64,000 nt of DNA from positions 1-64,000 of IMG/VR virus record IMGVR_UViG_3300005096_000071; one strand, given 5' to 3'. The position numbers and the translations under genes were made by a program. This document shows, in pieces, positions 10,738 through 48,204 of this stretch; within the stretch, counting starts at the first letter, position 1, and each line of letters starts with the position of its first letter. This DNA comes from a virus. The notes beneath the pieces are model-generated. The model was given only the letters and a program-made list of their open reading frames with translations, made no database searches and was not told the origin of the DNA.

Positions 10738-10776
10738 GTACACTAACCCGGGCGCATTGCAACCGGGTTAGTGTAC
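10738..10776 (-). promoter_or_regulatory. repeated promoter/operator element 1 (perfect 14-bp inverted repeat)
   Basis: GTACACTAACCCGG-TTGCAATGCGC-CCGGGTTAGTGTAC; -10 TACGCT. Confidence 0.85.
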
Positions 10777-10780
10777 AAAG

Positions 10781-11110
10781 TCAAAACGAGTCGAAAGCCC
10801 GAATGATCTCGTCTAGTTCGGACCGTTTTATGACGATCCCGCTGGCGACCGTCAGTCGGACGACCCGATCATCTCCCCGAGAAACATCCCACGAGATGTC
10901 GGCCAACTCGAACCGACCCGCGACGACGATCGGACGACCGCGATCCGCCAGGTTCACGCGTGGAGCTTCGCGTGTGGGATGGCTCGCGCGTTGAGCCTGG
11001 AGCTGTCGCCGAAGCCTGATCACCTCGGCCTCGGCCGTCATTGCAGCGGAGCGCGCCTCGGCTATCACGGTGCCACACTCGCGTAGCACCTCGGATAGCA
11101 ACACGCTCAT
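10781..11110 (-). CDS. hypothetical protein
   Basis: Start overlaps the upstream stop (ATGA). Confidence 0.65.
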   Translation of the reverse strand: MSVLLSEVLRECGTVIAEARSAAMTAEAEVIRLRRQLQAQRASHPTREAPRVNLADRGRPIVVAGRFELADISWDVSRGDDRVVRLTVASGIVIKRSELDEIIRAFDSF

Positions 11111-11295
11111 CGGGAGTAGCTCCCCTCGCTGCTGCCCTGCTTTGGGACATGGACCGTGAGGGTCCCACTGGATGATGCGCTCCGGACCCTCAAGCCATAC
11201 GACCGCAGAATGTCGTCCGAGTAGCCCGCGCTGGCGCGGTTGAAGTTCGCGGACGGGGCGGCGGTGAGGTCGACCGTTTCGGAGTAGTTCGTCAT
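11107..11295 (-). CDS. cassette protein (MTNYSET..)
   Basis: Element plus GCA-ATG. Confidence 0.7.
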   Translation of the reverse strand: MTNYSETVDLTAAPSANFNRASAGYSDDILRSYGLRVRSASSSGTLTVHVPKQGSSEGSYSR

Positions 11296-11307
11296 TGCTC
11301 GATTAAC

Positions 11308-11347
11308 GTACACGATCACGGGCGGCAAATCAACCCTTGTCGTGCAC
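11308..11347 (-). promoter_or_regulatory. repeated element 2
   Basis: GTGCAC-N8-TTGATT-N17-TACGTT. Confidence 0.85.
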
Positions 11348-11656
11348 TTTCTTTGCGCGGCGTTTCTCTCGCTTGCGGGCGAGGTTGAGATCGTTCTGGC
11401 GCTTGTGCTCGCGAGCCTTCCGGATGTTCATCTCGCGCGCGGTCACCCGGATCTCCTCGCACGCGTCGGGATCGTCGAGGAGCGTGGCGAGTTGGGTCCA
11501 CTCGTCGTCGGGCGTCCCCTTGAGTGACATCAACCCCGATAGGATCCCAGCCTCCCCGGCCAGGGCGAGGAGCCGCAGACGGTAGGCGCCGATGTCAGCG
11601 CGGTGCTCTTCTTCCGCATCGAGGAGCGCCCGCCGTGCGAGTTCGTCGGGGTTCAC
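11330..11656 (-). CDS. hypothetical helical protein
   Basis: GTG start; stop lies inside element 2. Confidence 0.55.
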   Translation of the reverse strand: MNPDELARRALLDAEEEHRADIGAYRLRLLALAGEAGILSGLMSLKGTPDDEWTQLATLLDDPDACEEIRVTAREMNIRKAREHKRQNDLNLARKREKRRAKKVHDKG

Positions 11657-12194
11657 GCGTCCCGGCCCACCTGGTACAGATCGAAGAGAAGGTCCCTCGG
11701 GGGGAGGTGTTGGACGGTCCACAGCATGGCGGCGCGCTATTCCGGGACGGGTTCGAAGTCGGCGTGGAGTGTGCCCAGATGCTGAATAAACGCACCCTGG
11801 CAACTCTCACAGAGAGACATTGATCCGATCCTACCGTCGGCCCCCGGCTTGCGCTCGGTTGCGATGACGGTCGGCGGCGCGGCGCAGCGGCGACGGTAGC
11901 CGTTGGCGGGGTCGCCCGGGATCCCGCCCATCTGGAACGGCCCCGCGGTCGGGATCTCGGCCTGGCACCGTTCCAGGTCGGGCGGGGTCAGGGGGACCGG
12001 TTCTGCTTTTCCGAGTAAGAGATCGCCCATAGCTAGCTCGGGTGTGGGTACAAAGTGAACGACAGGCCGTCGAGGTCGACCCCGTGGCATTCGCAGCCAT
12101 CCAACGCGTCGCGGGCCTTTTGCTCGGCGGCCTCCTGGTCGACACCCGCAAGCGGTAAGTCTCCCACTATATCCTCCAGGTCGACCTCGATCGC

Positions 12195-12455
12195 TTAGGC
12201 GTGCTCGATACCCTCGACCGGGCCAGCCTTGGGCGACATCGAGCCGATCCCCTTCATGGCCCAGATGATGCCGTCGAACAGGGTCCAGACAGCGTTCGCG
12301 CTACCGCGCGGGCCGGTGATGTCGAGGCCGTCGGCGTCGATGTTGCTCACGGTCCCCTTGACGAACCCGACACCCTGGACGGAGATCTTCACTTTGTCGC
12401 CGACTTTGAGGTCGAGGAGCGTTTTGGCGGTGTCGGTGGCGGTTGCGTTGGTCAT
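12195..12455 (-). CDS. cassette protein (MTNATAT..), SH3/KOW-like
   Basis: LKVGDKVKI..GTVSNID; element upstream. Confidence 0.75.
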   Translation of the reverse strand: MTNATATDTAKTLLDLKVGDKVKISVQGVGFVKGTVSNIDADGLDITGPRGSANAVWTLFDGIIWAMKGIGSMSPKAGPVEGIEHA

Positions 12456-12467
12456 TGCTCCGATAAT

Positions 12468-12506
12468 GTACACTGCCCCGGGCGCACTGCAACCCCCGGG
12501 GTGCAC
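12468..12506 (-). promoter_or_regulatory. repeated element 3
   Basis: GTGCAC-N8-TTGCAG-N16-TACATT. Confidence 0.9.
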
Positions 12507-12516
12507 TTTGTTCGAA

Positions 12517-12732
12517 CTATTTCGCGGGCCCCTCGATCCGGATCTCTTTGTTGTAGTGAGCGTGGGCGGAGATGAGGCCGTGCTGCTGGAGTTCGGCGCA
12601 CACGCGGATGGTGGCTTTCGCGTTGCGGCTGAAGGTGAGATGCTTGCCAGCGGCGAAGTACGCGCCCCATCGCTTCATAAAGCGGGTGGCTTTGGGAGAT
12701 AGTTCGGCGGGGGTGGTGTCGGCGTTCGTCAT
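12517..12732 (-). CDS. cassette protein (MTNADTT..), possibly winged-helix
   Basis: Element upstream; CAELQQHGLIS motif. Confidence 0.7.
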   Translation of the reverse strand: MTNADTTPAELSPKATRFMKRWGAYFAAGKHLTFSRNAKATIRVCAELQQHGLISAHAHYNKEIRIEGPAK

Positions 12733-12744
12733 TGCCTGTACATA

Positions 12745-12783
12745 GTACACCATCACGCGGGCATTGCAACCGGGGTAGTGCAC
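12745..12783 (-). promoter_or_regulatory. repeated element 4
   Basis: GTGCAC-N8-TTGCAA-N16-TACTAT. Confidence 0.9.
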
Positions 12784-12873
12784 TTTATCGTGCTCGCGAT
12801 CGAGACGATCGCTCGCTGGCCCGCCGGGCGTCCAGCAAGGGGACCCCCCCTCCCGCGTGGGGCGCGCCCGGCC

Positions 12874-13065
12874 CTAGCAGTGGGCGAGCCAGTTGGTAGC
12901 CTCGGCGGCGGTATCGAAGGTCTCGCGGTGAGAGTGGAGCCGGCCCGTCTCAAGGCTGGTCCAGTCGGTCACCACGTGCCAGACCTTTGCGGCCAGGCCT
13001 TGCTTGGCTACGATTCCGGTCTCGATGCGGCGGGTCTTGGCGGGGGTTGGCGTCGTGTCGGTCAT
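12874..13065 (-). CDS. cassette protein (MTDTTPT..)
   Basis: Element upstream; FDTAAEATNWL motif. Confidence 0.75.
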   Translation of the reverse strand: MTDTTPTPAKTRRIETGIVAKQGLAAKVWHVVTDWTSLETGRLHSHRETFDTAAEATNWLAHC

Positions 13066-13077
13066 TGCTCAGCCATC

Positions 13078-13115
13078 GTACACTATCACGGGCGCATTAC
13101 AACCGTGGCGTGCAC
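13078..13115 (-). promoter_or_regulatory. repeated element 5
   Basis: GTGCAC-N7-TTGTAA-N16-TACGAT. Confidence 0.85.
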
Positions 13116-13380
13116 TTTGTTTGAAGAAAGATCAGCCGACCCGCGGCAACCCCTGCCGGTAGGCGCTCGCGACCATCCGGCCCCATGGCGTGATCGACAC
13201 AAGCGGGGTCTCTTCGGGGCCGTCGGGCCACTCGATCGCGAGCACGTAGTCCACGATCAAGCCCGCGTCATAGAGCGCGTACCGTGTTCAACTCACGCGG
13301 GGCCGTCCCCTCGGGCCGAGCTGATAGGCGTATCAGCGCGGTGCACATCGGGCGCGTGACGTCGTTCCGGTTCGCTGGCC

Positions 13381-13623
13381 TCACACCGGCGATGCCCCGC
13401 GCGGCGTACCGGGCGGGGCTGGGCGCTGGTGGCTCCGCACGTCCAGGTTGCTCTCGTGCTCGATACCCTCGACGGCAAACGAGGTGGCGAAGAAGTACAG
13501 GCGCGCGATCTTGTGGCCGTGGGTGTTGGTCTCGACTCGCCAACCGTCGATCGTGGTGTTGTTGAAGTCACCAACGAAGGTGCGGGCGGCGGCTCGGGTT
13601 CAGATGTCGTTGCGCGTTGTCAT
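13381..13623 (-). pseudogene. cassette ORF with in-frame TGA at codon 8
   Basis: MTTRNDI*TRAAARTFVGDFNNTTIDGWRVE..; TGA at 13602-13600. Confidence 0.65.
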
Positions 13624-13635
13624 TGCTCAATCAAT

Positions 13636-13674
13636 GTACACTACTGGGAGCGGATCGCAAGTAGTGCGGTGCAC
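13636..13674 (-). promoter_or_regulatory. repeated element 6
   Basis: GTGCAC-N8-TTGCGA-N16-TACATT. Confidence 0.9.
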
Positions 13675-13716
13675 TTTATCCGAAGGAAGATGAGGATTCC
13701 ACCGCCACACCGGGGC

Positions 13717-13923
13717 CTATGCCTCAAAGGAGGATGGGTCGGAGCAGTAGCCCTTGGCGCGGTGTGTGGCGACAAGTAACCCCGCGGTGTGCTCGGATAC
13801 CAAGCCGAGGACCTTGAGGTGCCTCACGGCGGCCGGCGAGAAGTCGCGAACACGACGAGAACCGGTGCGAAGTGAGGCAAGGGTTGCGCGGCAGGAGAGA
13901 GTAATGGCGGTCGGCGTCGGCAT
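13717..13923 (-). CDS. cassette protein (MPTPTAI..), winged-helix-like
   Basis: AVRHLKVLGLVS..LVATHRA; element upstream. Confidence 0.65.
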   Translation of the reverse strand: MPTPTAITLSCRATLASLRTGSRRVRDFSPAAVRHLKVLGLVSEHTAGLLVATHRAKGYCSDPSSFEA

Positions 13924-13935
13924 TGCTCCACTGTT

Positions 13936-13974
13936 GTACACTATCCCGCGACGCATGCAAGCGCCGCGGTGCAC
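13936..13974 (-). promoter_or_regulatory. repeated element 7
   Basis: GTGCAC-N8-TTGCAT-N16-TACAAC. Confidence 0.85.
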
Positions 13975-13990
13975 TTTGTTTGAAGAAAGA

Positions 13991-14239
13991 TCAGAAGTCG
14001 ATCGGCGGGGCCGGGAGCAGCGGCCCGGACTCCCGTTTGGTCCGGCCGATCATCTGCGGCCAGAGGATCGTGCGGTACAGGCCCGACATCGTGTCGTCCC
14101 GGATCGACGGCATCAGGCACTCCAGGAACCGCGACAACGTCCAGATCCACACGTGGTGCTGATACCCGCCACGGGCGGCGAGCTTGCGGGCCACACGTCG
14201 CGGCCGCTTGCGGCGCGGTGCCTTGGCTCGGAGCTTCAT
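13991..14239 (-). CDS. basic hypothetical protein
   Basis: Coupled start; shares the APRRKRPRRxAxKLA motif with 36644-36871. Confidence 0.6.
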   Translation of the reverse strand: MKLRAKAPRRKRPRRVARKLAARGGYQHHVWIWTLSRFLECLMPSIRDDTMSGLYRTILWPQMIGRTKRESGPLLPAPPIDF

Positions 14240-14555
14240 GTGCCAACCCCGGTCCTGCGGATGGTGAACTCGACGCGCTCACCAGAAGTCGTCACCGCCG
14301 GGATCGTCTCGCCGTCGATCAATTCTAGCAGGGAACGATCCCCCGCACTTGGCCGACGGAACGAACCGTGCACGAGCAACCCGAGCCCTGCTTGCCCGAA
14401 TGTCAGACCGACCTGAACCGTGATCCGTGGCATCAGCCAACCCCCACGAACGTGCACGAACCCCGGCGATCCGCATCGTCGGCCAGCCACGACTCGGCGG
14501 CGGGCGGAACAGAGCGACTCCAAACGATTTTTTCTGCGGCCATTGCTCAGTTAAT

Positions 14556-14602
14556 ATACACGGCACACGGCACACGAGCACGGCGCAACCCGGTTCGTGC
14601 AC
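14556..14602 (-). promoter_or_regulatory. repeated element 8, spacer lengthened by a 7-bp duplication
   Basis: GTGCAC-N8-TTGCGC-N24-TATATT; CACGGCA twice on the + strand. Confidence 0.7.
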
Positions 14603-14762
14603 TTTATTCGGTCTTTTCTCGGGGTCAACGCGCGCGCGCGATCTAGAGATCAAACGCCGATCCGGTCGGTCCCAAAACGCCGATCCGGGCTGGCTGACTC
14701 GTTTTGCGGGGCTCGAACGCCGGTCGCGAAAAACCCCCGGGGCTCGGAGCCGCACGGGGGAA

Positions 14763-14834
14763 TGTTCACGGTAGGATTCGAACCTACAAAATCCCGGGCG
14801 AGAGCCCGGAGCTTTGCCGTTTGCTTACGTGAAC
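14763..14834 (-). tRNA. tRNA-like gene, Glu(CTC)-like with a 6-nt anticodon loop
   Basis: GTTCACG/CGTGAAC acceptor, AGC/GCT D stem, CCGGG-CTCTCG-CCCGG, GTAGG-TTCGAAT-CCTAC. Confidence 0.7.
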
Positions 14835-14838
14835 GAAG

Positions 14839-14921
14839 ATGAGACCGCGGCCCACTGCGCGCTCGTGCCCATAATCGGGCGCTCACCGTCTGCAATGACT
14901 CACAGGGGCCAGCGGTCTCAT
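14839..14921 (-). ncRNA. putative structured RNA (multi-branch hairpin)
   Basis: ATGAGACCGC/GCGGTCTCAT and GGCCC/GGGCC stems with internal hairpins. Confidence 0.4.
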
Positions 14922-14975
14922 TGCCGATGCCCCGGCCGATTGCTCGGTCGGGGCTGGCTCGGACTCAGCAGCGGG

Positions 14976-15125
14976 TTAGCTCGCGACCCACTCGCTGAAC
15001 GTTTTGGCACCCTGGACACCATGGCAGTCCAGGTAGATCTCGTATTCCCACTGGAGCCTTTGCGGCGCGTCGGATGCGGCGGAGAGTAGGGAGCGGTACT
15101 TGCGGGTGGCGGCTGCGTTGGTCAT
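14976..15125 (-). CDS. 49-aa cassette protein (MTNAAAT..EYEIYLDC..KTFSEWVAS)
   Basis: Translated by hand; element upstream. Confidence 0.7.
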   Translation of the reverse strand: MTNAAATRKYRSLLSAASDAPQRLQWEYEIYLDCHGVQGAKTFSEWVAS

Positions 15126-15137
15126 TGCCTAGACACC

Positions 15138-15176
15138 GTACACCATCGGGCGAGCATTGCAACCCCGGTGGTGCAC
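15138..15176 (-). promoter_or_regulatory. repeated element 9
   Basis: GTGCAC-N8-TTGCAA-N16-TACGGT. Confidence 0.9.
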
Positions 15177-15190
15177 TTTGTCCGATGTTC

Positions 15191-15493
15191 CTACAGGCGC
15201 CCGATGGACTGGACGATCTCCACGTTGCCGTTTCGGCGGCGGAGCGCCATATAGAGCGTTTTGGCGCGGGGGCTGTCGAGGACGACACCGAGATCTTCGG
15301 CCATGGATGGGGCCGCGCGGCGGGTGTTGGGTCCTGCGCAGGTGGCAACGTGCACGCGGTAGGTGCGCCCGTTTGTCGCGGTTACCAGGGAGCCAACGGC
15401 GGTCGGCGTGATGGCGGCTTGGCGGTAGGCCTCGGCGGCCACGAAAGCGGTGTGGGCGGTCAGGGCGGCGGCGGAGTCGGTTGCGTTCGTCAT
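15191..15493 (-). CDS. cassette protein (MTNATDS..)
   Basis: Element upstream. Confidence 0.75.
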   Translation of the reverse strand: MTNATDSAAALTAHTAFVAAEAYRQAAITPTAVGSLVTATNGRTYRVHVATCAGPNTRRAAPSMAEDLGVVLDSPRAKTLYMALRRRNGNVEIVQSIGRL

Positions 15494-15505
15494 TGCAAGG
15501 TCACT

Positions 15506-15544
15506 GTACACTATCGGGGAGCGGTTGCAAGGTCGGTGGTGCAC
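15506..15544 (-). promoter_or_regulatory. repeated element 10
   Basis: GTGCAC-N8-TTGCAA-N16-TACAGT. Confidence 0.9.
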
Positions 15545-15699
15545 TTTGTTCGAAGTGTGTTTCAGGCGGCGGCAGCTGCCAGGGACTGAACGGCGCACAC
15601 CGCTCTACTGGTGCGTCGGACAGTGGCCCGTGTCTCCTCGCCGTAGAGTTCCAACTCGTCGCCGAGGGCCAGCATCGCATCGGAAAGGGATGCGGCGGC

Positions 15700-15920
15700 G
15701 GCGGACGCACGGTCACAGCAAAACGGGACGCACTCGTGCCGTCGAACGACGTGGCCCCGTGGTGACTGCAGAGCGAGATCCGCTTGCGGGTGTTGACCCG
15801 CCCGACATGGACGACGCAGCCATGCTCGCGGCCAAGGTCGCACCACTCGGGCAGGCTCTGTAACTTCCAATCGGTAGACCCACCGATGAAGATCCCGACG
15901 CGCTCGCCGAGCAAAGGAGC
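15700..15920 (-). pseudogene. C-terminal fragment of a phage TIM-barrel (tRNA-guanine transglycosylase-like) protein
   Basis: GIFIGGSTDWK..HVGRVNT.KR..SFDGTS motifs; in-frame stop about 25 codons upstream. Confidence 0.45.
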
Positions 15921-16142
15921 GTACCGGATGTACCGGATGCGACCATGACGCGATCTCCGCGTCTTTCTCCATGGTCGACTGTGAGCCTATGTGGGTCGTC
16001 ACCATCCGCGCGCTTGCTGGCCGATTCCGCGCACCGGTCGAGGTCGAGGACTCAGCCAGCGACCTGCAGAGCGCGGGGGAAGGGGCCCAACGCTCCTACC
16101 TACTGCGGCTCGGCCGTGGTGACATCCGCCACGCGTAATAAA

Positions 16143-16182
16143 GTGCACATATTCACTTGCGCTCCACCCGGTAGTAGTGCAC
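16143..16182 (+). promoter_or_regulatory. repeated element 11
   Basis: GTGCAC-N8-TTGCGC-N17-CACAGT. Confidence 0.8.
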
Positions 16183-16194
16183 AGTAGTGGAGCA

Positions 16195-16551
16195 ATGACG
16201 ATGACAGCGCCAACCGCCGCCAATCCTGCCAAGCTCTCCGACGGATCGTGGGGCGCCCGCGTCAAGGGTGCCGTCTCCATCGGAGACGAGTTGCTCGTTA
16301 CCACCCGCGCGGGCAAGTCTTGGGCCGCGACCGTGGCGGACGTCGTGAGTGAGCGTGACGGAGTCTCGCTGGTCTCGACCGAAAGCCGCAAGGCTGCCCC
16401 GAGGCGCGGTAGTTCGAGGCGCAGCTCGGGGGGAATCTGTGATAACTGCGACGAGCCGCGGCGGAATCTCCAGTCGGCTGTCGACACCTCGGGCATCGGG
16501 GGACGGGTCTGCCCTAGATGCGTACGCGAGGGGGACCTCAGTTTCGCGTAA
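16195..16551 (+). CDS. cassette protein with C-terminal CxxC..CxxC; paralog of 47649-48152
   Basis: KLSDGSWGARV..GDELLV..GKS. Confidence 0.75.
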   Translation: MTMTAPTAANPAKLSDGSWGARVKGAVSIGDELLVTTRAGKSWAATVADVVSERDGVSLVSTESRKAAPRRGSSRRSSGGICDNCDEPRRNLQSAVDTSGIGGRVCPRCVREGDLSFA

Positions 16552-16834
16552 AAAAGCGCACGGGGCCGGCTCCGCCGAGTTGCGTAGGTCGCAACTCGGG
16601 TCCATTCGTCCATTCGGCGCACCCCGAGTTCCTTACTGTCTCGATCGCTCACGAGCGGCGTAGTCCTCCGCTGCCTGATCGACCATTTCGCGCGTGACGA
16701 ACTCCTGTGCTGGACCCTACCAAATCGTGGAAAGGCGTCACCGACCCAGGCAGTCTACGGCAGCAAAACTGCAGGCCAGCCAGCTGGCTGGCCTGCGACT
16801 CGGCCGGGCGACACCTGATCTTTCTTCGGAAAAA

Positions 16835-16873
16835 GTGCACAACCCCGCTTGCACCTCGACCACGATAGTGTAC
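16835..16873 (+). promoter_or_regulatory. repeated element 12
   Basis: GTGCAC-N8-TTGCAC-N16-TACAGT. Confidence 0.9.
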
Positions 16874-16885
16874 AGTGACTGAGCA

Positions 16886-17068
16886 ATGACAAACGCAAAC
16901 AACACCGCCCTCATCGAGACCCTCACCACCGCAGACCAGGCTCGCGCCGACGCCATCACAGCCGCACGTCTTATGGACGACCCAGAGCCCTATGTCTCGA
17001 CCGAGGATCCAGTGAGACGCGGTTGGGGTTACGGCGAAGCGTGGCTCGCTGAAGAGAACCAAGGATGA
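16886..17068 (+). CDS. cassette protein (MTNANNT..)
   Basis: Element upstream. Confidence 0.7.
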   Translation: MTNANNTALIETLTTADQARADAITAARLMDDPEPYVSTEDPVRRGWGYGEAWLAEENQG

Positions 17069-17072
17069 ATAG

Positions 17073-17549: not shown

Positions 17550-17747
17550 TGTCGTGCGCACCCTACGGCCACAACCCCATCAGAAACACGGCAGACCTCC
17601 CCGCCGAGGTACGGATGGAATTGCTCGCCGCCGACGCTGGCGGGCGCCCGCTTCACGCGATCGCACAGGTCTGCCGCGAGTGCGGCGTGGTGTTCGTCGC
17701 CGCCGAGGCCCTCGCCCCTTTGACCGACCTCGTTAGGGCAAGTACCG

Positions 17748-18401
17748 GTGGGTAGGCCTAGGCCAGGGCGACCGGTGCTCCGGCACGCGGGTAGGGCGGC
17801 CGAAACGGAGGCCCGGATGATCGAGGCTACGCGGCTCGATCCCCCGACGCACTCGGGGCGCACGCTCGTGGCGCTCCACATCGGGACCCACGAAAGCGTG
17901 GTGGGTCTTATGGCCGCCACGCGCTCCGGCCTCAATGCGTTCCGGACCTCCGAGGGTGCCATGATAGGCCGCGCCGATCTCATCGCGGCCGCGGAGTACA
18001 TAGACGGGCTGGGGCCGAGCCTGACCCTGATCCAACGCCGAGCGCTCTGGGCTGGCGCTCGCGATGCTCGCACCCTGAAGACCGTTCGATCGTTGGAGGG
18101 CCGCGGGCTAGCTAAACACGACCCCGACGCCAACACGGTGGCTCTGACCGGGCTCGGCCAGTACGTCGCCGAGGCTGTCGCGTTCATCGGGAAAGCCCGC
18201 TGGCGGGCGCCGTGGTTCATGAGGCTGGCCGCCGAGGAGTGGCCCGAGGACGCCGAGGCCGTGACGACAGAGCCGCGCCCGATCGGGTTCGTCGGAGCAT
18301 CGAACCGGATGAGGGAGCGCCACCGCGGGATCGCGGCCGCACTCGATCGGCTACTGCCGGATCTCGAACGGTCTGAGCTGTTTCGCGACAGTGCACTTTA
18401 G
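17748..18401 (+). CDS. hypothetical protein with a winged-helix-like segment
   Basis: TVRSLEGRGLA..LTGLG; stop lies inside element 13. Confidence 0.55.
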   Translation: MGRPRPGRPVLRHAGRAAETEARMIEATRLDPPTHSGRTLVALHIGTHESVVGLMAATRSGLNAFRTSEGAMIGRADLIAAAEYIDGLGPSLTLIQRRALWAGARDARTLKTVRSLEGRGLAKHDPDANTVALTGLGQYVAEAVAFIGKARWRAPWFMRLAAEEWPEDAEAVTTEPRPIGFVGASNRMRERHRGIAAALDRLLPDLERSELFRDSAL

Positions 18402-18430
18402 AGGTTGCGGCCTCGCGCTGGGTCGTGTAC
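18391..18430 (+). promoter_or_regulatory. repeated element 13
   Basis: GTGCAC-N8-TTGCGG-N17-TACGTT. Confidence 0.85.
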
Positions 18431-18442
18431 GTTGGGGGAGCA

Positions 18443-18658
18443 ATGCCGAAGGCTACACGAACCCAGGTTCCTCGGAGCGGGGAGGAGCTGCGGATCAAGC
18501 CGCGCGAGACCGGGGAGTGCGAGGTGCACGACTGGCCATCCGAGGGGATGGGCCTGCGGCTAGTCCAGGCAATGCGGGACCGGCTCGCCAAGGGGATCAA
18601 CGCGTGTCGGCCCTGCCTCGATCGCGCGCTGGCCGACGCTAAGAAAGCCCGATCATGA
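18443..18658 (+). CDS. small Zn-binding-like protein
   Basis: CEVH..CRPC; element upstream. Confidence 0.65.
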   Translation: MPKATRTQVPRSGEELRIKPRETGECEVHDWPSEGMGLRLVQAMRDRLAKGINACRPCLDRALADAKKARS

Positions 18659-19020: not shown

Positions 19021-19022
19021 GG

Positions 19023-19529: not shown

Positions 19530-19593
19530 ACCACCGCGCCCGCCGTCGCCCCGTCCTTCGCCTGCAGTGGGTGAGCGGCGGGGCATCGTGGGT

Positions 19594-22619: not shown

Positions 22620-22648
22620 TGGACAATGCCCATGGTGTCGTGTACATT
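22620..22648 (+). promoter_or_regulatory. half element (TGGACA-N17-TACATT, no upstream GTGCAC)
   Basis: GTGTACATT-N6-GCA-ATG. Confidence 0.65.
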
Positions 22649-22657
22649 GGCTGGGCA

Positions 22658-22990
22658 ATGACGCAACACAACGAAGCAGAGCGGATCGGGGTTGGCCGGA
22701 CAGACTACGCGGAGCGCCGCGAGGCCCGGGTGGACCGGCTCGAAGCGGCGGCAGCCACGGCCCAGACCAAGAGCAACGCGGCGCACGCGGGGGTCAAGGC
22801 GATCACGGACCACATCCCGATGGGACAGCCGATTTTGGTAGGGCACCACAGCGAAAAACGCGCGCGACGCGACCAGGACCGGATCCAAAACGGGACGCGC
22901 CGAGCCTTCGCGGCTGACGATGCCGAGCGGCTCCGATGCCGAGCGCGGTCCGCTGAGCGGAACACGGCGATCTCATCCGACGACTGCAGA
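22658..22990 (+). pseudogene. DUF3560-like protein, apparently truncated
   Basis: HIPMGQPILVGHHSEKRARRD and ISSDD motifs, then degenerate sequence. Confidence 0.65.
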
Positions 22991-24216: not shown

Positions 24217-24256
24217 GTGCACGATAAAGCTTGCGCCGCACTCCGTGGGCGTGTAC
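24217..24256 (+). promoter_or_regulatory. repeated element 14
   Basis: GTGCAC-N8-TTGCGC-N17-TACGAC. Confidence 0.8.
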
Positions 24257-24269
24257 GACGAGCGTAGCA

Positions 24270-25532
24270 ATGACCAAAATAATCGAACTACAGGCCTGTA
24301 ACTTCAAGCGGCTAAAGGCCGTGCACATTCGCCCTGATGGCCACACGGTGGTGCTCGGCGGCGGGAATGCGGAGGGGAAGACGTCTGTGTTGGACGCGAT
24401 CCAAGCTGCATTGGGTGGGGGCCGAGCTGCACCAGTGGAGCCGATTCGCCGCGGATGCTCGCGCGCCGAGGTTAGGCTGGAGTTAGACGAGTTGATCGTC
24501 ACGCGCTCGTTCTCGGGCGCGGGCTCCAAGATTGAGGTCCGGAGCAAGGAGTTTGGTAAGCTAAAATCGCCCCAAGCTGTTCTGGACAAACTGACGGACT
24601 CGCTGTCATTCGACCCACTGGCGTTCAGCCGCATGAAACCGGCCGACCAGGCGGAGACGCTTCGCGAGTTGGTGGGCCTGGACACCGGAGGGGTGGATGG
24701 AGAGATCCTCCAGCTCACAGAGGAGCGCAAGACGGCGAACCGCGAGGTAAAGCGTCTACAGGGCGTCGCTGATAGCTGCACCTTTCACAGAGAGGCGCCC
24801 GAACTAATAGTGTTGGTGGGGGACCTCGCCAACGACCTGGAGAGAGCATCAGCGCACAACGCCGAGCGGGATGGTCTGCTGAAGTCCGCGCACGCCAGTG
24901 ATCTGAAGCGGGAGCGGCGAGAGCAGAAGATACAGGATCTTGAGGCAATGCTCGCGGAGTACCGCCAGGAGATCGAGGACCTACGAGGGGCGGCTGAGAA
25001 GTGGCGCGGCGAGGCCCACGAGGTGGATGTGAAGGACACGGACGCGATCCGTACCGACCTCAACGAGGCGGAAGCGATCAACGAAAAGGTGCGAGACAAC
25101 ATCGCCTACCGAAACGCCCAACTGGAGCTGCACGCGGCGAAGGAGGCCGCGGGCAGCTTGGACAAGTCGCTGGACGGCGCGCGTTCCCGACGCCGCGAAC
25201 TGATCGAGGCGGTCACGTTCCCGATCGAGGGACTCGCTGTTTCGGACGCCGGAGTGACGTTTCGAGGGTTCGCGTTCGACCAGGCGTCCGGTGCGGAGCA
25301 GTTGAAGGTATCGGCGGCGATCGGGATCGCGATGAACCCGGATCTACGAGTACTGCTGATCCGAGACGGGTCACTGCTGGACAACGAGTCACTGCAAGCC
25401 CTGGGGGTGTTAGCGGAGGACGCCGACGCGCAACTGTGGATCGAGCGGGTCGGCGACGGCGACGAGGTCTCGGTCGTGATCGAGGACGGCGAGGTGGCCG
25501 AGCATAGGCCGTCGACAATAAGTACACAATAA
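24270..25532 (+). CDS. SbcC/SMC-like AAA ATPase
   Basis: NFKRLK, Walker A GGNAEGKTS, coiled coil, ASGAEQ signature, LLIRDGSLLD. Confidence 0.9.
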   Translation: MTKIIELQACNFKRLKAVHIRPDGHTVVLGGGNAEGKTSVLDAIQAALGGGRAAPVEPIRRGCSRAEVRLELDELIVTRSFSGAGSKIEVRSKEFGKLKSPQAVLDKLTDSLSFDPLAFSRMKPADQAETLRELVGLDTGGVDGEILQLTEERKTANREVKRLQGVADSCTFHREAPELIVLVGDLANDLERASAHNAERDGLLKSAHASDLKRERREQKIQDLEAMLAEYRQEIEDLRGAAEKWRGEAHEVDVKDTDAIRTDLNEAEAINEKVRDNIAYRNAQLELHAAKEAAGSLDKSLDGARSRRRELIEAVTFPIEGLAVSDAGVTFRGFAFDQASGAEQLKVSAAIGIAMNPDLRVLLIRDGSLLDNESLQALGVLAEDADAQLWIERVGDGDEVSVVIEDGEVAEHRPSTISTQ

Positions 25533-25561
25533 GACTTGCGGAGCATTACTCGGCGGTGTAC
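25522..25561 (+). promoter_or_regulatory. repeated element 15
   Basis: GTACAC-N8-TTGCGG-N17-TACATA. Confidence 0.8.
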
Positions 25562-25573
25562 ATAGTAAGGGCA

Positions 25574-25801
25574 ATGGCGAAGAGAAAGAAGACACGGCGG
25601 TCGATCAGCGTGAAGGGCGCTACCTACCGCATGTTCAAGGTCCTGGCGGAGCGCCGGGGCCTCCCGGTCTCGGCGCTCACTGAGCAAGTGATGCTCCGCG
25701 AGCTTGACGGGACGGGGATCGTTGATCCAGGAGCGGCGCCGGTCGCACCGGCAACCTCAACCGAGCCCGAGGCGATTCCCTCGGCGCACTTCACGTTCTG
25801 A
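25574..25801 (+). CDS. ribbon-helix-helix DNA-binding protein
   Basis: RRSISV strand, GATYRMFKVLAERRG, LPVSALTEQVM. Confidence 0.7.
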   Translation: MAKRKKTRRSISVKGATYRMFKVLAERRGLPVSALTEQVMLRELDGTGIVDPGAAPVAPATSTEPEAIPSAHFTF

Positions 25802-39049: not shown

Positions 39050-39118
39050 CGCGTTCGTCCGAGGTGGTGTTATGCTCAGCGCACCACATCCACTGCACCC
39101 ACTGCAGGAGAGACGAGC

Positions 39119-41653: not shown

Positions 41654-41679
41654 TCAGCCTGAAGTAGGAGGACCAACCG

Positions 41680-42955: not shown

Positions 42956-43803
42956 TACGAGATCGGTGCTTCAATGAAGGGGTGGTGGCTGTACCCTTCC
43001 AGCGCGAAGTGCTTGGGCTCGAACAGTTCGAACAGGTGATCCTCCGTCGGGCACAGCTTCTCCGTGTCAACGAAGGCCGTCCGGTCGAGGGCCGCCGTCG
43101 GCATCGGCCGGGTGTCCCGGAGTAGCTGGGTCCGCGCCTGATCGACGTGATTTTTGTACAGGTGCGCGCTGCCGAAGTTCATCACCAGCCGCCCGGGTTC
43201 GAGCCCGACCACGGCCGCGATGATGTGGGTGAGAGCCGCGTACATCACGATATTGAACGGGACTCCGAGGAACCAGTCCGCGGACCGCTGGACCATCATC
43301 GTGTTGAGCCGCCCCCGTTGCACGTTGAATTGGTAGTACAGGTGGCACGGCGGTAGCTGCATGGCATGGATCTCCCCGGCGTTCCACGCCGACACGATGA
43401 TCCGCCGGCTGTCCGGATTGGTCCGTAGCATGTGGACCGCATTGACCAGCTGGTCAACCGTCGCCGGCCATCCACCCTCACCGGCCGCACGCCACGCTCG
43501 CCATTGCGCGCCGTAGATGGGGCCCAGTTCGCCGTCCTTCGCCCACTTGTCCCAGTACTTCACGCCCAACCCGTGGAGACTGGCGGTGTCGGTGAACCCG
43601 TACATCATCCACGCCAGTTCTGCGATCGCCTTGGGCCACCTAACCTCCTTGGTCGTCAGGGCCGGGAACCCGTCGGCGAGGTCGCACGAGAGTTGCGGCC
43701 CCCAGACTTCAATCGTCCCCGTTCCGGTTCTGTCGTTTTGCTCGACCCCTTCGTCGAGGATTCGGGACATCACCTCCAGGTACTGCTCCTCCATCGTTGC
43801 CAT
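42955..43803 (-). CDS. thyA: thymidylate synthase
   Basis: DRTGTGT, LGPIYG.QWR, LPPCH, QRSAD..LGVPFN, HLYKNH. Confidence 0.97.
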   Translation of the reverse strand: MATMEEQYLEVMSRILDEGVEQNDRTGTGTIEVWGPQLSCDLADGFPALTTKEVRWPKAIAELAWMMYGFTDTASLHGLGVKYWDKWAKDGELGPIYGAQWRAWRAAGEGGWPATVDQLVNAVHMLRTNPDSRRIIVSAWNAGEIHAMQLPPCHLYYQFNVQRGRLNTMMVQRSADWFLGVPFNIVMYAALTHIIAAVVGLEPGRLVMNFGSAHLYKNHVDQARTQLLRDTRPMPTAALDRTAFVDTEKLCPTEDHLFELFEPKHFALEGYSHHPFIEAPIS

Positions 43804-44097
43804 CGTCTGCGCTCACTCCTGCCGGCTCTGCCGGCGGCTGGGGTTTAGGCGGTGTCAACTCGGCTTTGGGCGCGGGCTCCACCGGGGGCGCCTCTGCGGT
43901 AGGGGACGCGGTGGCCCACCCGAGAGACGCAACTGTGCCGGGAGAGCACCCAGCGGCACGGAGCGCCAACGACATCGCTTGGCGTCCCTGTCGGGACACG
44001 GCGCGCGGGTGGACGCAGTAAGTCTCGCCGGCCTCGACCGCCGCAGTCACGGCGGCCGCTTGCTCTTTGGTGGCCGGGAGAGTGATCGGAATGTGCT

Positions 44098-44322
44098 TCA
44101 TGCGGCCAAGGGTACTACGCGGAACGACACGGTCGCCCGCAGGTAGCCGCGTGTCGCGGCAAAGTTCCGCCGCACCTCGGACTCCGTCGCCCACCCGCGG
44201 AAGGCTGAGCCGCGTGCGATGTTCTTCCCGTTCGGCGCGACGAGCCTCCATTGCCAGCGGCCGCTCCGCATCTGGTAGTAGACGACGGTGGCCCGCGTGG
44301 GCTTGGCCCGCCTGCGGCTCAT
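44098..44322 (-). CDS. DUF1508/YegP-like protein
   Basis: GRWQWRLVAPNGKNIA. Confidence 0.65.
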   Translation of the reverse strand: MSRRRAKPTRATVVYYQMRSGRWQWRLVAPNGKNIARGSAFRGWATESEVRRNFAATRGYLRATVSFRVVPLAA

Positions 44323-44588
44323 CCCCGCCCCGTCTCTTTCGAGTCCTCTACCCCCGGGAGGTCTTCCTGGCCGTACCGCTCGGCCATGAGTCCGATCAAC
44401 TCCGACTCTGCGCGGAGCAAGATCCGGGTAACCGCGCGGTCGTTGGCCTTCATCGCTTTGTTTCGCGAGCGGCGGCAGCTGTTGATCGCGGTGTCGATGG
44501 GATCGACACCCTCGTCCTCGCCCTCGTCCTCGTCGGACGCGGCGGGTGTGGTGACGGGGGCGGCGTTGGTCTCGGGTGTCTGGCTCAT
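44319..44588 (-). CDS. hypothetical protein
   Basis: AGGAG RBS, coupled. Confidence 0.6.
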   Translation of the reverse strand: MSQTPETNAAPVTTPAASDEDEGEDEGVDPIDTAINSCRRSRNKAMKANDRAVTRILLRAESELIGLMAERYGQEDLPGVEDSKETGRG

Positions 44589-45184
44589 AGGGTCGTCTCC
44601 TGTTCGATGCAATTTGGTTTGGCGCTGAGGATGCGGCCGAGGTGGCCGCTCTCGGTGACGCGGAAGCGGATCCGGGTCCGCGGTCCGTTCCATCCCAGGA
44701 GGATGACGGAGATCCGCTTGCTCGGATCGCCGCGGGGGCGCCAGAAAGACACGGCGACGGGGGTTACCACAATGGGCTCCACGTCCGCGACCGGTACAGG
44801 CGCAAGCTTCCGCCGTGGCCCGATCGGGGGGATCGCCCGGCGCTTACCCTTGCGTCGTCCGTTGCCGCGGTACCGCATCATCCCGCCATCCTTCAGGTGG
44901 ACAGTCACCAGGGCTTTGCGGCCGTGCACCGCTACGTGGTCGCGCAGCTTGATCACCGCGTTGGCGTCCATCACCACGCGGCGCATCTCGACCTTACCGC
45001 GGCAGCGGACCGTTATGGTCGCGATGTCGTCCGGGTGGACGTCGTCCTGCCCCGCTCGGTCGTCCTCGGAAAAGTACCGCGTTTCGCGCCGAGGCTGCGC
45101 TCGGCCTCGCCAGACCGGTCCGGTGGACTGTGGGCGTCCGGGTTCCCTTATGAGCTTCCCGTCCGTCGGATTGAGGTATTGCAT
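44585..45184 (-). CDS. basic hypothetical protein
   Basis: TTGCGG-N17-TAGATT upstream. Confidence 0.55.
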   Translation of the reverse strand: MQYLNPTDGKLIREPGRPQSTGPVWRGRAQPRRETRYFSEDDRAGQDDVHPDDIATITVRCRGKVEMRRVVMDANAVIKLRDHVAVHGRKALVTVHLKDGGMMRYRGNGRRKGKRRAIPPIGPRRKLAPVPVADVEPIVVTPVAVSFWRPRGDPSKRISVILLGWNGPRTRIRFRVTESGHLGRILSAKPNCIEQETTL

Positions 45185-45225
45185 CGGATTGTGAATCTAT
45201 ACGGTCACGGCTAAGTCCGCAACGG

Positions 45226-45882
45226 TCAGGGTGCATTTTCACCTGGATCCCAGGCGGATGAAAAGTCACGATCGGCGAATAACTCCGCCAAACCCGTGAT
45301 CTGTTTCAGACGTAGAACCTCGTCGCTACACATCCCCAGCTCTTCCTGTATTTTCTTGTCGCGCCAGCCAGCCTTGTACAACATCCGCACGACCTCGGAC
45401 ATCGCATCGACGCGGTGCTCCCCACGCGCCCGATTGTGCTCGACAGTCGCCGCGATTCTCGACCCGTCATCAGTCCTACTCGCGCGGATCTGGGTCACTG
45501 GTAAACGACCATGCACGCTTTCGCTGACCTCCTTGATCTCCTTTCCCACACGGCTGCGATGGAACCCATCCACCACCACCACCACGCCATCGTCCACCTC
45601 GTGCGCGACGATCGGCATCGTGTACCCATTTGCCACGACGGAATGAGCGAGCAATTTCATTTCTGGCGGAGCCACAGTATTCGGGTTGTAGTCGTTGCCA
45701 CGCACGTCGTCAGCTCGGACCCACTGGACGAGGTCAACAGGGTGCTCCCGCAGAGGTGAAATCTCGTGGATGTGCAGCCTCGCAGTATTGATTGCATCGA
45801 TCCTGTCGTCGAGATCTGAGATCTCGCCGAGGGCTGTCGCAAGTTCACGAGCTAACTCGTCCGCCTTTTTTACAGTCCCCAT
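45226..45882 (-). CDS. ibrB: IbrB/YbdM-like ParB N-terminal domain protein
   Basis: NDYNPN.VAPPEMKLL..GYTMPIV, VDGFHR, HNRARG.H. Confidence 0.9.
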   Translation of the reverse strand: MGTVKKADELARELATALGEISDLDDRIDAINTARLHIHEISPLREHPVDLVQWVRADDVRGNDYNPNTVAPPEMKLLAHSVVANGYTMPIVAHEVDDGVVVVVDGFHRSRVGKEIKEVSESVHGRLPVTQIRASRTDDGSRIAATVEHNRARGEHRVDAMSEVVRMLYKAGWRDKKIQEELGMCSDEVLRLKQITGLAELFADRDFSSAWDPGENAP

Positions 45883-47105
45883 TTCGCTCGTCTCTTTCTC
45901 ATGATCTTCCTGTAACGCTGGTAAGCGCCATCCTTATTTGACTGCTGTGAGAACGACAGCCTCCGACACATCCTGTCGTTCAGGAGGATCTTCTTGGCGA
46001 CGCGTCGCCAAGACGGGGCTTTACGCTGCGCTTCGAGCTTCGGGTCGGCCTCGTCGACCATCTCCACTCCTTTGCCTCGCCAGTGCGCTATGAATACTGC
46101 GATCTTATCAGAGTAATGGTCTCTCTCCTCCTCAGGGAGGGTCTCAAGGAGGAACGAAACGTAACTCTCCCACGTTGGGTGGGAGTCTGGAAGTGTGACC
46201 TTCCCGTTCCCGAGGATATTTCCTCGTTTGCCAGCATAGAGAGCACCGTAATTTGCCCCCGCGACCCTCGCTAGTACACGGTGCCACGTATTTGGCTCTA
46301 CTACGTGCCACATACGTAGCCCCCTCCGCTGGTCGTCGCCGTATGGCTGACAAATACGCTGCTGATGGATCGGCAGCCCGGCGCGGTGCATTGAGTCATA
46401 TAAGGTGTTGTGCGGCAACCCTGTCTTGCCGTGAAAAGTCCAAATGTCCTCAGTCTTCCAATCGTAGATTGGGTAACAGTTGACCAGTCCTTCTCCCTTC
46501 CATGTGGTCCAGTGCAGACCCTCGACTCGACTCTTTCGGATTTTCGCTATAGTGCGCCATCGGTTCAGCGACTCGTCGGTCCTTATCCCCACGAGACAGG
46601 CACATGGCTCGCCTCCAGAATACCACTTTCCAAACTCAGGGACAAAGTCCTCGAATTCCATTGCACATTTTCGATCACCGTCAGTCCATGGTGGACGGTA
46701 GAAAGGGTACACATCGGGGTCCGTGACGGCGAAGTCAGGGGGAGTCCTGACCCATGATTCGGTCATCGTTGGATCCCACGATGTCCAGTATGGTTGGACA
46801 ACAGAGACAGCGTTCCGTAGGTGGATCGGGAGAGCAACCCAGTGTGGATCGATACAGTCTGCGTAGGACGCGAACATCTCTTTGATGTAGTCTATCGTGC
46901 ATTCGAACTGGGCCTCAAGATCAACGTACAAGACGCCGATACGCCTGCCGCGCCGGCGTGCTTCGGCGCATGCTAAGTGCATCATGACCCCAGAGTCCTT
47001 GCCGGAGGGTCCAGACAAGTACACTCGTCGGAAGGAATCGAAAACCCACGAGATACGTTCCTTCGCAGCGTCGAGTACGTTTTTGTCGAGCCGTATCTTA
47101 TCCAT
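45870..47105 (-). CDS. ibrA: IbrA/YbdN-like PAPS reductase-family protein with DUF3440
   Basis: SGKDS PP-loop, GIRTDESLNR, YPIYDW, QRICQPYG, APSWRR. Confidence 0.9.
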   Translation of the reverse strand: MDKIRLDKNVLDAAKERISWVFDSFRRVYLSGPSGKDSGVMMHLACAEARRRGRRIGVLYVDLEAQFECTIDYIKEMFASYADCIDPHWVALPIHLRNAVSVVQPYWTSWDPTMTESWVRTPPDFAVTDPDVYPFYRPPWTDGDRKCAMEFEDFVPEFGKWYSGGEPCACLVGIRTDESLNRWRTIAKIRKSRVEGLHWTTWKGEGLVNCYPIYDWKTEDIWTFHGKTGLPHNTLYDSMHRAGLPIHQQRICQPYGDDQRRGLRMWHVVEPNTWHRVLARVAGANYGALYAGKRGNILGNGKVTLPDSHPTWESYVSFLLETLPEEERDHYSDKIAVFIAHWRGKGVEMVDEADPKLEAQRKAPSWRRVAKKILLNDRMCRRLSFSQQSNKDGAYQRYRKIMRKRRAKWGL

Positions 47106-47637
47106 GGATCCTATCGATCTGTGCCCCACGCACAACCACCATTCGCTCCGAGGATCCTTCGTAGACTCGGTATCTGTGACCGTCCCGTAAACGATAGATC
47201 CTAACTCCATCATCGAGCACGAAGCCGTTGCGCTGGGCTGCAGAAACGTCTCGAACCCATGGGCGATCAAGGACGTTCTCAACGACCTTTAGCACTGCCG
47301 CATCGCCACCTCCATCCGCGACTCTGAGCGCCTGGAGTGGCTCGACGCTAGTGCTTTTGCCGTTTTCAAACCGGGCAAACTGTCGCTGGTGTGGGCCGCT
47401 TCGTATCTCGTACAAAACATTCTCTCGCAATAGCCATGTTGCGACAACTCCATACAGGTTCCCGCTCCATGCGGAGTGAGCGTTGCTCCAGTCGTTCATT
47501 GGAGTGATGAACGACCTGGAAAGCCCCCACTTGGGGTGAATGCCATCGATTGTCGCAACCCATGGTTTGATGGGACTTCCTCCTTTATAGTGGGCAGGCA
47601 CTTCGATCCTCAAGATCGAGAAAGGGTGTTTCTTCAT
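47098..47637 (-). CDS. hypothetical protein co-transcribed with the ibrAB-like pair
   Basis: PWVATIDG..GV..WLL..LYEI; overlaps the ibrA start. Confidence 0.7.
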   Translation of the reverse strand: MKKHPFSILRIEVPAHYKGGSPIKPWVATIDGIHPKWGLSRSFITPMNDWSNAHSAWSGNLYGVVATWLLRENVLYEIRSGPHQRQFARFENGKSTSVEPLQALRVADGGGDAAVLKVVENVLDRPWVRDVSAAQRNGFVLDDGVRIYRLRDGHRYRVYEGSSERMVVVRGAQIDRIHG

Positions 47638-47648
47638 AACCATCCCGG

Positions 47649-48152
47649 TTAGCAGTCGAACTCGTCGAACGCACATGCTCCGCAGTACCCCTCCATCGCT
47701 ACGTGGTGGGGTGCGTCGACGAGCGCGCCTCGGCACTCCTTACACCTGGTCTGCGGGCGACCGGCCCGTGGTGACCGTTTGCGTTGCACGACGCGACAGA
47801 GAAAACCGGTCCCACTCTCCACGACAGACTCCACCGTTTCTGTTTTCGTAGAGCCAGATGCCTTCATAACCTCCAACTTGCTCCCTGCCGCGGGCCGGTC
47901 CCCGTAGACCATCACCGCCCACGAGCCGTCCTCCGTTTTCGTGTAGGAGGCACCAGCAATGGCGCGTCCGGTGAATGAGCCGGCAAGCGATGCCTTGCCA
48001 GTCCACCACGCGCTTTCGTTGGGATCCCAACGAAAGCCGGCGGATCGAAGGTCGTGTCGCATCGGGTATGTGTTACCGCGCACATAATGTCGTCGTCCCT
48101 TCTTCTCGATGCTAAGCGAATCTGCGGGGCGGGTTGCGTTGGCGTCGGTCAT
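47649..48152 (-). CDS. cassette protein (MTDANAT..) with C-terminal Zn finger
   Basis: GNTYP..LRSAGFRWD..WW domain plus DGSW domain plus CxxC..CxxC. Confidence 0.8.
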   Translation of the reverse strand: MTDANATRPADSLSIEKKGRRHYVRGNTYPMRHDLRSAGFRWDPNESAWWTGKASLAGSFTGRAIAGASYTKTEDGSWAVMVYGDRPAAGSKLEVMKASGSTKTETVESVVESGTGFLCRVVQRKRSPRAGRPQTRCKECRGALVDAPHHVAMEGYCGACAFDEFDC

Positions 48153-48164
48153 TGCTCAGATGTT

Positions 48165-48204
48165 GTACACGACCGATGGGCGCGGCGCAAGCTAAATCGT
48201 GCAC
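48165..48204 (-). promoter_or_regulatory. repeated element 17
   Basis: GTGCAC-N8-TTGCGC-N17-TACAAC. Confidence 0.85.

Follow-up and report, generated by a model that had tools for sequence, protein, structure and literature searches.

A compact promoter-like element with paired boxes and a fused start codon heads accessory genes of a high-GC phage contig

We describe a repeated element of about 55 base pairs (bp) in IMGVR_UViG_3300005096_000071, a linear IMG/VR phage contig of 91,158 bp (CheckV estimate, 85%; G+C, 64.5%), the first 64 kb of which are referred to here as the window. Sixteen intact copies in the window follow the consensus AAA-GTGCAC-N8-TTGCnn-N13/14-GTGTAC-N9-GCA-ATG and head mostly small genes without known relatives. 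In our judgement the element is probably a compact promoter for the host polymerase with a near-leaderless start, in which two boxes serve a regulator as docking sites. It clearly exemplifies a kind of phage regulatory cassette that is already known and does not amount to a new system.

Architecture and enrichment of the element

The first box (box1) reads GTGCAC in 14 of the 16 intact copies and GTACAC in the other two, and in 13 copies it is preceded by AAA, a flank that has no counterpart on the other side. Eight nucleotides (nt) further on (seven in a single copy) lies a -35 hexamer that begins with TTG in every copy, so that all match TTGnnn, and with TTGC in 14, and 13 or 14 nt then separate this hexamer from the second box (box2), which is GTGTAC in 15 copies. 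The -10 hexamer, TACnnT, is made of the last three bases of box2 and the three that follow (TA in 15 copies, final T in 12), and the spacer between -35 and -10 measures 16 nt in ten copies and 17 nt in six. Box2 and the ATG start codon are 12 nt apart (13 in one copy), and the trinucleotide directly before the ATG is invariably GCA. Between the two boxes are 26-28 nt (32-34 bp from centre to centre), and they bracket the -35, as a first-pass annotation made from the letters alone had described.

The element is real and occurs far above chance. Across the 91-kb genome GTGCAC-N8-TTG was counted 17 times against 0.7 expected under a first-order Markov model, TTGC-N15/16-GTGTAC 16 times against 0.1, and GTGTAC-N9-GCAATG 16 times against 0.0, and the reversed control pattern had no match. 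The first-pass annotation listed 17 positions; the element is found at all of them, but only 16 copies are intact, the copy at 14556 being degenerate through a 7-nt insertion. An nhmmer profile built from the 16 copies and run over the genome, a scan the first-pass annotation had proposed, added members beyond the range first given (88542-88486, 90931-90891, 68000-67935, and 49077-49037) and placed the suspected variants near 9440 and 22640 among the partial copies.

Each copy either lies between genes or intrudes on the gene upstream at its 3' end alone, several start 1-16 nt from the upstream stop codon or overlap it, and all 16 canonical copies (11 on the minus strand, five on the plus strand) are co-oriented with the headed gene and end on the ATG that opens its open reading frame (ORF). 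The copies in the window, with the lengths of the headed products in amino acids (aa), are as follows.

10723..10776, minus strand: element with box1 GTACAC and perfect 14-bp arms (E 4.7e-17); ATG 10725 opens an 80-aa ORFan (10483-10725)
11293..11347, minus strand: element with -35 TTGATT; ATG 11295 opens a 62-aa ORFan, followed by a 109-aa gene led by a Shine-Dalgarno (SD) sequence
12453..12506, minus strand: element (E 4.8e-20); ATG 12455 opens an 86-aa ORFan
12730..12783, minus strand: element; ATG 12732 opens a 71-aa ORFan
13063..13115, minus strand: element, N7 variant, preceded by the 20-nt junction common to four copies; ATG 13065 opens a 63-aa ORFan
13621..13674, minus strand: element; ATG 13623 opens an ORF with an in-frame TGA at codon 8
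13921..13974, minus strand: element with the shared upstream junction; ATG 13923 opens a 68-aa ORF
14541..14602, minus strand: degenerate copy (14556) with box1 and -35 intact, a 7-nt spacer insertion and box2 GTGTAT (E 4.9e-10); 36-codon ORF
15123..15176, minus strand: element; ATG 15125 opens a 49-aa ORFan, followed by a tRNA-like gene (14763-14834)
15491..15544, minus strand: element, first of the leftward array; ATG 15493 opens a 100-aa ORFan
16143..16197, plus strand: first element of the rightward set, with GTGCAC as box2; ATG 16195 opens a 118-aa ORFan
16835..16888, plus strand: element with the shared upstream junction; ATG 16886 opens a 60-aa ORFan and a 4-gene operon
18391..18445, plus strand: element that overlaps the gene upstream at its 3' end; ATG 18443 opens a 71-aa ORFan and a 6-gene operon to 20836
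24217..24272, plus strand: element with N13 before the ATG (24270); heads a 420-aa AAA_23/SbcC-like ATPase (phrog_1499)
25522..25576, plus strand: element whose box1 is GTACAC and which overlaps the ATPase stop codon; its ATG (25574) heads a 75-aa ribbon-helix-helix protein and the operon behind it
37458..37512, minus strand: element; ATG 37460 opens an 87-aa ORFan and a leftward operon to ~33806
48150..48204, minus strand: element; ATG 48152 opens a 167-aa zinc-ribbon-like ORFan and an operon with PAPS_reduct/DUF3440, DUF1508, thymidylate synthase and DUF1643

Two sub-types can be told apart by the N8 between box1 and -35, which is G/C-rich in the array copies and A/T-rich, at the position of a proximal UP element, in the operon-heading copies (ATGs 16195, 18443, 24270, 25574, 37460, and 48152). 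Four copies (13078, 13636, 13936, and 16835, by their first-listed positions) have 20 further upstream nt in common, including the CT(G/C)ATCTT(T/C)CTTC sequence that had already been noticed there, and in two of them the TGA of this junction is the stop codon of the upstream ORF, which hints that the junction, and not the promoter alone, was copied.

The genome also contains one further near-canonical copy and about six partial variants, and the latter keep the TTGCnn/TAnnnT core with only one box or with a displaced box. These additional members are given next.

22620..22660 (nhmmer 22626-22670), plus strand: partial variant without box1, with -35 TGGACA and with box2 and GCAATG intact (E 1.8e-6); heads a 288-aa DUF3560 protein
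9475-9430, minus strand: partial variant keeping TTGCAC-N14-GTGTAC and GGGCAA, with the ATG 18 nt past box2; heads a 127-aa protein with a weak helix-turn-helix (HTH) match
49077-49037, minus strand: partial variant ATGCAC-N8-TTGCCA-N17-TACATT-cccgggcaa-GTG, from nhmmer
Genome 88542-88486, minus strand, outside the window: near-canonical copy with box2 GTCTAC (nhmmer E 3e-8); heads a 39-codon hydrophobic ORF
Genome 90931-90891 and 68000-67935, outside the window: partial variants from nhmmer

The copies head at least 17 accessory genes or operons, whose products are mostly small ORFans with no Pfam match and no paralogy by self-BLASTP, and Pfam and PHROGs assigned no function to the headed proteins except for the AAA_23 ATPase. 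The original picture of small-gene cassettes of mostly unknown proteins holds for these ORFans but fails as a restriction to small genes, for the SbcC-like AAA ATPase, the PAPS-reductase/DUF3440-thymidylate synthase-DUF1643 operon, and an 8-gene operon toward the tRNA region are headed too. None of the virion-annotated genes (major head, tape measure, baseplate J, portal, and terminase) carries the element, in agreement with what had been said of the structural genes. Since the core looks like that of a sigma promoter, all copies head genes, and most of these are small ORFans, we can fairly infer from the sequence a common regulon of the headed genes.

Several details were seen at individual copies. 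The ORF at 13381-13623 (minus strand) has its in-frame TGA at 13600-13602 (codon 8) and then 72 more open codons; this could be a nonsense mutation, a read-through codon or the end of a 7-codon minigene. In the unit of the 88542-88486 copy (88369-88542, minus strand) the hydrophobic ORF is followed by a GTGCAC-containing hairpin with a T-rich tail, and at genome 73826-73851 (plus strand) the sequence AAAAGTGCAC-N6-TTGTGC, a box1-bearing variant promoter in the replication module, lies upstream of a RecE-like exonuclease gene.

Probable promoter core and predicted near-leaderless start

TTGCnn and TACnnT at a spacing of 16-17 nt make a good housekeeping-sigma promoter, a well-supported reading of the sequence that bears out the resemblance first proposed. 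Transcription is predicted to begin 7 nt past the -10, on the G of GCA or plausibly on its A (a C-A step), which would leave a leader of 1-3 nt. This near-leaderless design, an addition to what the first-pass annotation had claimed, appears well supported by the sequence on both sides of the start codon. No usable SD sequence precedes any of the 16 element ATGs (GGAG, where present, ends 2 nt from the ATG); the other genes of the phage have an ordinary AGGAG(G) at -8 to -13. All 16 element-headed genes start with ATG compared with 60% of the other 120 genes, their first 30 coding nt are 73.5% A+C compared with 55% in those 120 (Mann-Whitney p 7e-8), and the minimum free energy of the 43 nt from -3 to +40 is -2.6 compared with -9.3 kcal/mol in other genes (p 7e-8). 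Ten of the 16 headed proteins begin M-T-N/D, and self-BLASTP finds no mutual similarity among them; because the headed proteins are unrelated, this 5' coding bias lies in the nucleotide sequence and not in common protein ancestry.

In the element copies 9 nt separate the -10 from the ATG; the corresponding gap is 6-7 nt in predicted leaderless genes elsewhere in the phage. TAnnnT stands exactly 6 nt before the start codon of seven other genes (0.39 expected) and 7 nt before that of three further genes (0.36 expected), forming a second promoter class (10 genes against ~0.75 expected) that often reads TGGTACAnT, a canonical extended -10, that has no -35, and that heads virion and other genes starting with ATG or GTG. 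From their sequence, these promoters are predicted to give true leaderless late transcripts.

Window 4330-4348, 37531-37548, 48779-48797, and 59187-59205; genome 64175-64193 and 82991-83009: second-class promoters

The leftward array holds 10 promoters in 4.8 kb, and most downstream genes inside operons either have an SD sequence or share an overlapping stop-start codon with the gene before them. For efficient translation a gene without an SD sequence would need a transcript beginning at its own start codon, hence one promoter per small gene, and leaderless translation is probably the reason for the promoter density, the last step of this argument being one that we infer.

Paired boxes and a candidate regulator

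Box1 is perfectly palindromic, and box2 differs from it by a single C-to-T change that creates the TA of the -10. The GTG preceding TAC is invariant and one base out of register with the TGn of an extended -10, the third -10 base is always C, and both boxes are conserved beyond sigma requirements. They look separable from the promoter core, as partial variants keep the core with one box. The most likely reading of these sequences is that the boxes are putative docking sites for one regulator, and an operator role is plausible. Outside the elements GTGCAC is found about as often as chance predicts (33 compared with about 30), and a protein reading it would therefore need paired boxes for specificity. 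Three genes of the phage encode possible binders.

25574..25801, plus strand: ribbon-helix-helix (RHH, CopG/Arc-like) protein, candidate box regulator, from family profiles and the AlphaFold (AF2) fold
Genome 72806-73135: HTH_26 protein, other possible candidate binder
9041-9424, minus strand: 127-aa protein with a weak HTH match, other possible candidate binder

The best candidate, judged by its modelled fold and its place behind the 25522 copy, is the 75-aa RHH protein. It has no Pfam match of its own but belongs to a family of 36 homologue clusters, members of which match RHH_5, RepB-RCR_reg, RHH_3, and RHH_4. The AF2 model made with the family alignment has a pLDDT of 86 (96-98 across residues 11-40), and its best PDB fold matches are almost all RHH DNA binders (MatP, ParG, StnY, CopG, PutA, Arc, and omega), with TM-scores, normalised to the target, of up to 0.85. 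Across the family (~36 clusters, roughly 75 aa) we also observed a conserved N-terminal K/R-rich arm (TRRSISVKG) and, beyond a variable linker, an invariant-like C-terminal HFTF motif.

In the mechanism that we favor, the housekeeping RNA polymerase holoenzyme of the host would read each copy as a compact expression unit, and the resulting mRNA, with its 1-3-nt leader and no SD sequence, would be translated like a leaderless message, aided by an A+C-rich, unstructured stretch over the first 10 codons. Nearly every small ORFan of the 10.7-15.5-kb array would in this way be served by its own copy, with SD-bearing genes following in operons. One phage-encoded DNA-binding protein, docked on GTGCAC at about -48 and on GTGTAC overlapping the -10, might then switch the whole set, to which the first-pass annotation gave a hypothetical early or host-takeover role, and the RHH protein, lying within the putative regulon, could close a self-limiting shut-off loop.

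Four observations weigh against this mechanism or parts of it. The 9-nt gap predicts a leader of 1-3 nt and not a true 5'-AUG, and translation efficiency would depend on the host. Box1 keeps its distance from the -35 and box2 from the -10, but the distance from box to box varies, as would also be expected of promoter elements. Two RHH homologues in other contigs follow ordinary SD-led starts without boxes and so offer no link between RHH proteins and GTGCAC. Finally, none of the relatives found in the searches described below has the motif, and there is no phylogenetic footprint.

Alternative explanations

The boxes could instead be parts of promoter recognition and not operators, with box1 and its AAA as an UP-like or activator site and the GTG of box2 as an extended -10 specific to the host. 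On this reading the element is simply a very strong promoter, either unregulated or activator-dependent, and timing would come from elsewhere, for example from an anti-sigma-region-4 factor that favors the extended -10 promoters of virion genes. Box1 is indeed tied to the -35 (N8 in 15 of 16 copies) and box2 to the -10 and ATG, while the distance between the boxes floats with the spacer; the AAA flank is asymmetric, the operon-type copies have their AT-rich N8 at the proximal UP position, and the second promoter class, TGGTACAnT without a -35, heads virion genes. The GTG-TAC register is nevertheless one base off that of a canonical TGn extended -10, a palindromic box1 with a one-base-variant inverted box2 is unexpected for two unrelated polymerase contacts, and the partial variants would seem to work with other -10 contexts. 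We regard this explanation as unlikely.

Alternatively, the arms may act as nucleic-acid structure, a hairpin of box1 and box2 (in read-through RNA or extruded DNA) that terminates, insulates or processes transcripts between cassettes, with the unit serving also, like the PeSL elements of T4-type phages, as a joint at which homologous recombination would shuffle ORFan cassettes. For the nine array copies native halves do fold better than permuted ones (-17.2 compared with -14.35 +/- 0.97 kcal/mol, p 0.002), copy 10738 has its perfect 14-bp arms, four copies share the 20 upstream nt, with the upstream stop codon included in two, and the cassette bodies are unrelated ORFans. Over all 16 copies, by contrast, the difference is only marginal (-14.3 native compared with -13.0 kcal/mol chimeric, permutation p 0.04), in-register pair counts are null (p 0.28-0.8), the array signal comes from five or six copies with three others folding worse than their chimeras, no U-tract follows the arms in the sense direction, and the 60 nt upstream fold about as stably as background sequence (about -18 kcal/mol). 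A structural or insulating role of the element is accordingly a minority reading, and we hold it to be improbable. An antisense terminator (hairpin and TTT on the opposite strand) was considered and rejected as inconsistent across copies, the best hairpin, at 10738, having no T-tract. Inverted terminal hexamers around a variable interior, in a cassette-like arrangement, would also suit an attC-like or MITE-like mobile element, its ends being recombinase or transposase sites and its likeness to a promoter incidental; yet the protein scans turned up no integrase, recombinase or transposase family, neither the -35 nor the -10 varies, the ATG stands at its exact distance in 16 of 16 copies, all copies are co-oriented with their downstream genes, and the folding evidence is weak and falls short of what defines an integron attC. 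We consider this origin very unlikely indeed.

A wider version of the regulated promoter that we favor would make the element a three-in-one module found only in phages whose hosts have many leaderless mRNAs, combining a promoter, a paired-box switch bound by the RHH protein, and a palindromic cassette joint; the early set would time its own shut-off, and the joint would insulate the cassettes and let ORFans be swapped by homologous recombination. This is a speculative proposal that we think is doubtful as a whole. Were it true, leaderless translation would force one promoter per gene, and gene gain and regulation would be mechanistically coupled.

Comparison with known systems

The closest likeness is to the PeSL cassettes of T4-type phages, in which repeated strong sigma70-like early promoters precede ORFans in hyperplastic regions (Arbiol et al. 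2010, PMC2839356; Comeau et al. 2014, PMC4122927). Both have many near-identical sigma70-like promoters with an A/T-rich upstream flank, heading small ORFans in a variable accessory region between conserved modules, and in both the conserved unit is a possible recombination joint, of which the 20-nt junction common to four copies is the only hint in our case. They differ in that PeSL has a separate G/C stem-loop terminator and SD-led genes, while the element has no separate upstream hairpin or adjacent stem-loop terminator, encloses its -35 between the inverted boxes, and has promoter and ATG joined in one unit.

The SAS/ESAS of Cluster K mycobacteriophages (Pope et al. 2011, PMC3203893) and Cluster EF Microbacterium phages (PMC7302621) comprise a 13-bp motif in the SD position, GGGATAGGAGCCC, 3-8 bp from the start, and inverted repeats upstream of it with no recognisable promoter; their function in those phages is unsettled (PMC3203893, PMC7302621). 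They too are multi-copy, gene-oriented, tied to the start codon, confined to non-structural genes, and accompanied by imperfect inverted repeats just upstream. The element differs in having a clear -35/-10, an ATG 9 nt past the -10 and no SD-like core; before its ATG only GCA is invariant, with no 13-bp motif in the SD position. In Actinobacteria and Deinococcus-Thermus, genes are commonly expressed from a -10 that lies immediately before the ORF (PMC3898074, PMC4007540, PMC12340547). The element resembles such leaderless genes in its TAnnnT near the start, its lack of an SD sequence and its AUG, and 10 further genes of the phage have the canonical 6-7-nt gap; it differs in its 9-nt gap with invariant GCA and in a predicted leader of 1-3 nt instead of a 5'-terminal AUG.

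As possible operators, the boxes can be compared with two kinds of repressor site. Dispersed multi-copy repressor sites of temperate phages include the conserved inverted repeats of phiC31 and the C1 operators of P1. The L5 stoperators are also such sites, as far as a citation of them in PMC3203893 goes. Common to these and the element is a short site repeated about 15-30 times, through which one protein acts, or in our case may act, on many transcription units; the difference is that theirs serve immunity repressors and often lie inside genes, while the paired boxes of the element occur only inside promoters, and no integrase or CI-like immunity module was found in this phage. Arc/Mnt and CopG-type RHH repressors offer a second likeness, in that a small RHH protein lies within its putative regulon and palindromic subsites overlap the -10 and flank the -35. 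In known RHH operators the subsites are about one helical turn apart. The two boxes of the element lie 32-34 bp apart, and the role of the RHH protein here is that of a candidate.

Genome context, relatives, and host

Genes were called with a codon-bias model and annotated with Pfam and PHROGs, which gives the following map.

0.06-8.7 kb, plus strand: head genes
8.8-15.5 kb, minus strand: small leftward genes
16-30 kb, plus strand: rightward accessory genes
30-49 kb: mixed accessory operons
From 49.9 kb: tail genes (tape measure, baseplate J)
65-82 kb: replication and recombination genes (DnaB-like helicase, SF2 helicase, RecE/RecT-like proteins, ParB-methyltransferase)
83.2 kb: terminase
84.8 kb: portal

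A Pfam scan of the 127 predicted proteins found no sigma factor, RNA polymerase, WhiB or integrase, and the absence of a detected phage sigma factor or RNA polymerase is consistent with dependence on the host polymerase. An Rfam search returned tRNAs only, with no RNA family at the element copies. One of these is the tRNA-like gene inside the small-gene array (14763-14834, minus strand; Rfam tRNA, 43.5 bits), for which ARAGORN could not assign an anticodon (2-nt 'ct'). The first two rightward units are separated by a G/C-rich inverted repeat with 11-bp arms around a 4-nt loop (16771-16796, 26 nt in total), which ends 39 nt before the 16835 copy and is terminator-like by virtue of the T-run after it on the minus strand.

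No DNA-level match to the phage was found in 50,697 phage records. The strict element pattern is absent from IMG/VR and GTDB genomes, its single match in JGI metagenomes was rejected as a chance match sitting in 51%-GC DNA, and a looser pattern gave single chance matches only. The nearest terminase relatives (IMG/VR contigs, 43% identity) and the Arthrobacter phages with the closest AAA ATPase (40%) are without the motif, and a 68-kb relative contig has no comparable promoter family; that contig, G001, carries about 8 tandem copies of a TTCGTGTGTTCGTTGG-like unit of 16 nt (L022:10967-11092). GTDB genomes yielded no prophage relatives, and matches to the phage helicase are taxonomically scattered. 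Hints to the host are weak and consist of the Arthrobacter-phage matches and the heavy use of leaderless starts; an actinobacterium, or some other bacterium in which leaderless mRNAs abound, is the probable host.

Conclusions

If confirmed, the element would be a compact expression part of ~55 bp, uniting promoter, switch, and start codon, for use in high-GC bacteria capable of leaderless translation, and would provide a simple rule for why such phages have one promoter per small gene. It would also mark at least 17 transcription units, most of them encoding ORFans, as one co-regulated set, and thereby offer a shortlist for host-takeover and anti-defence screens.

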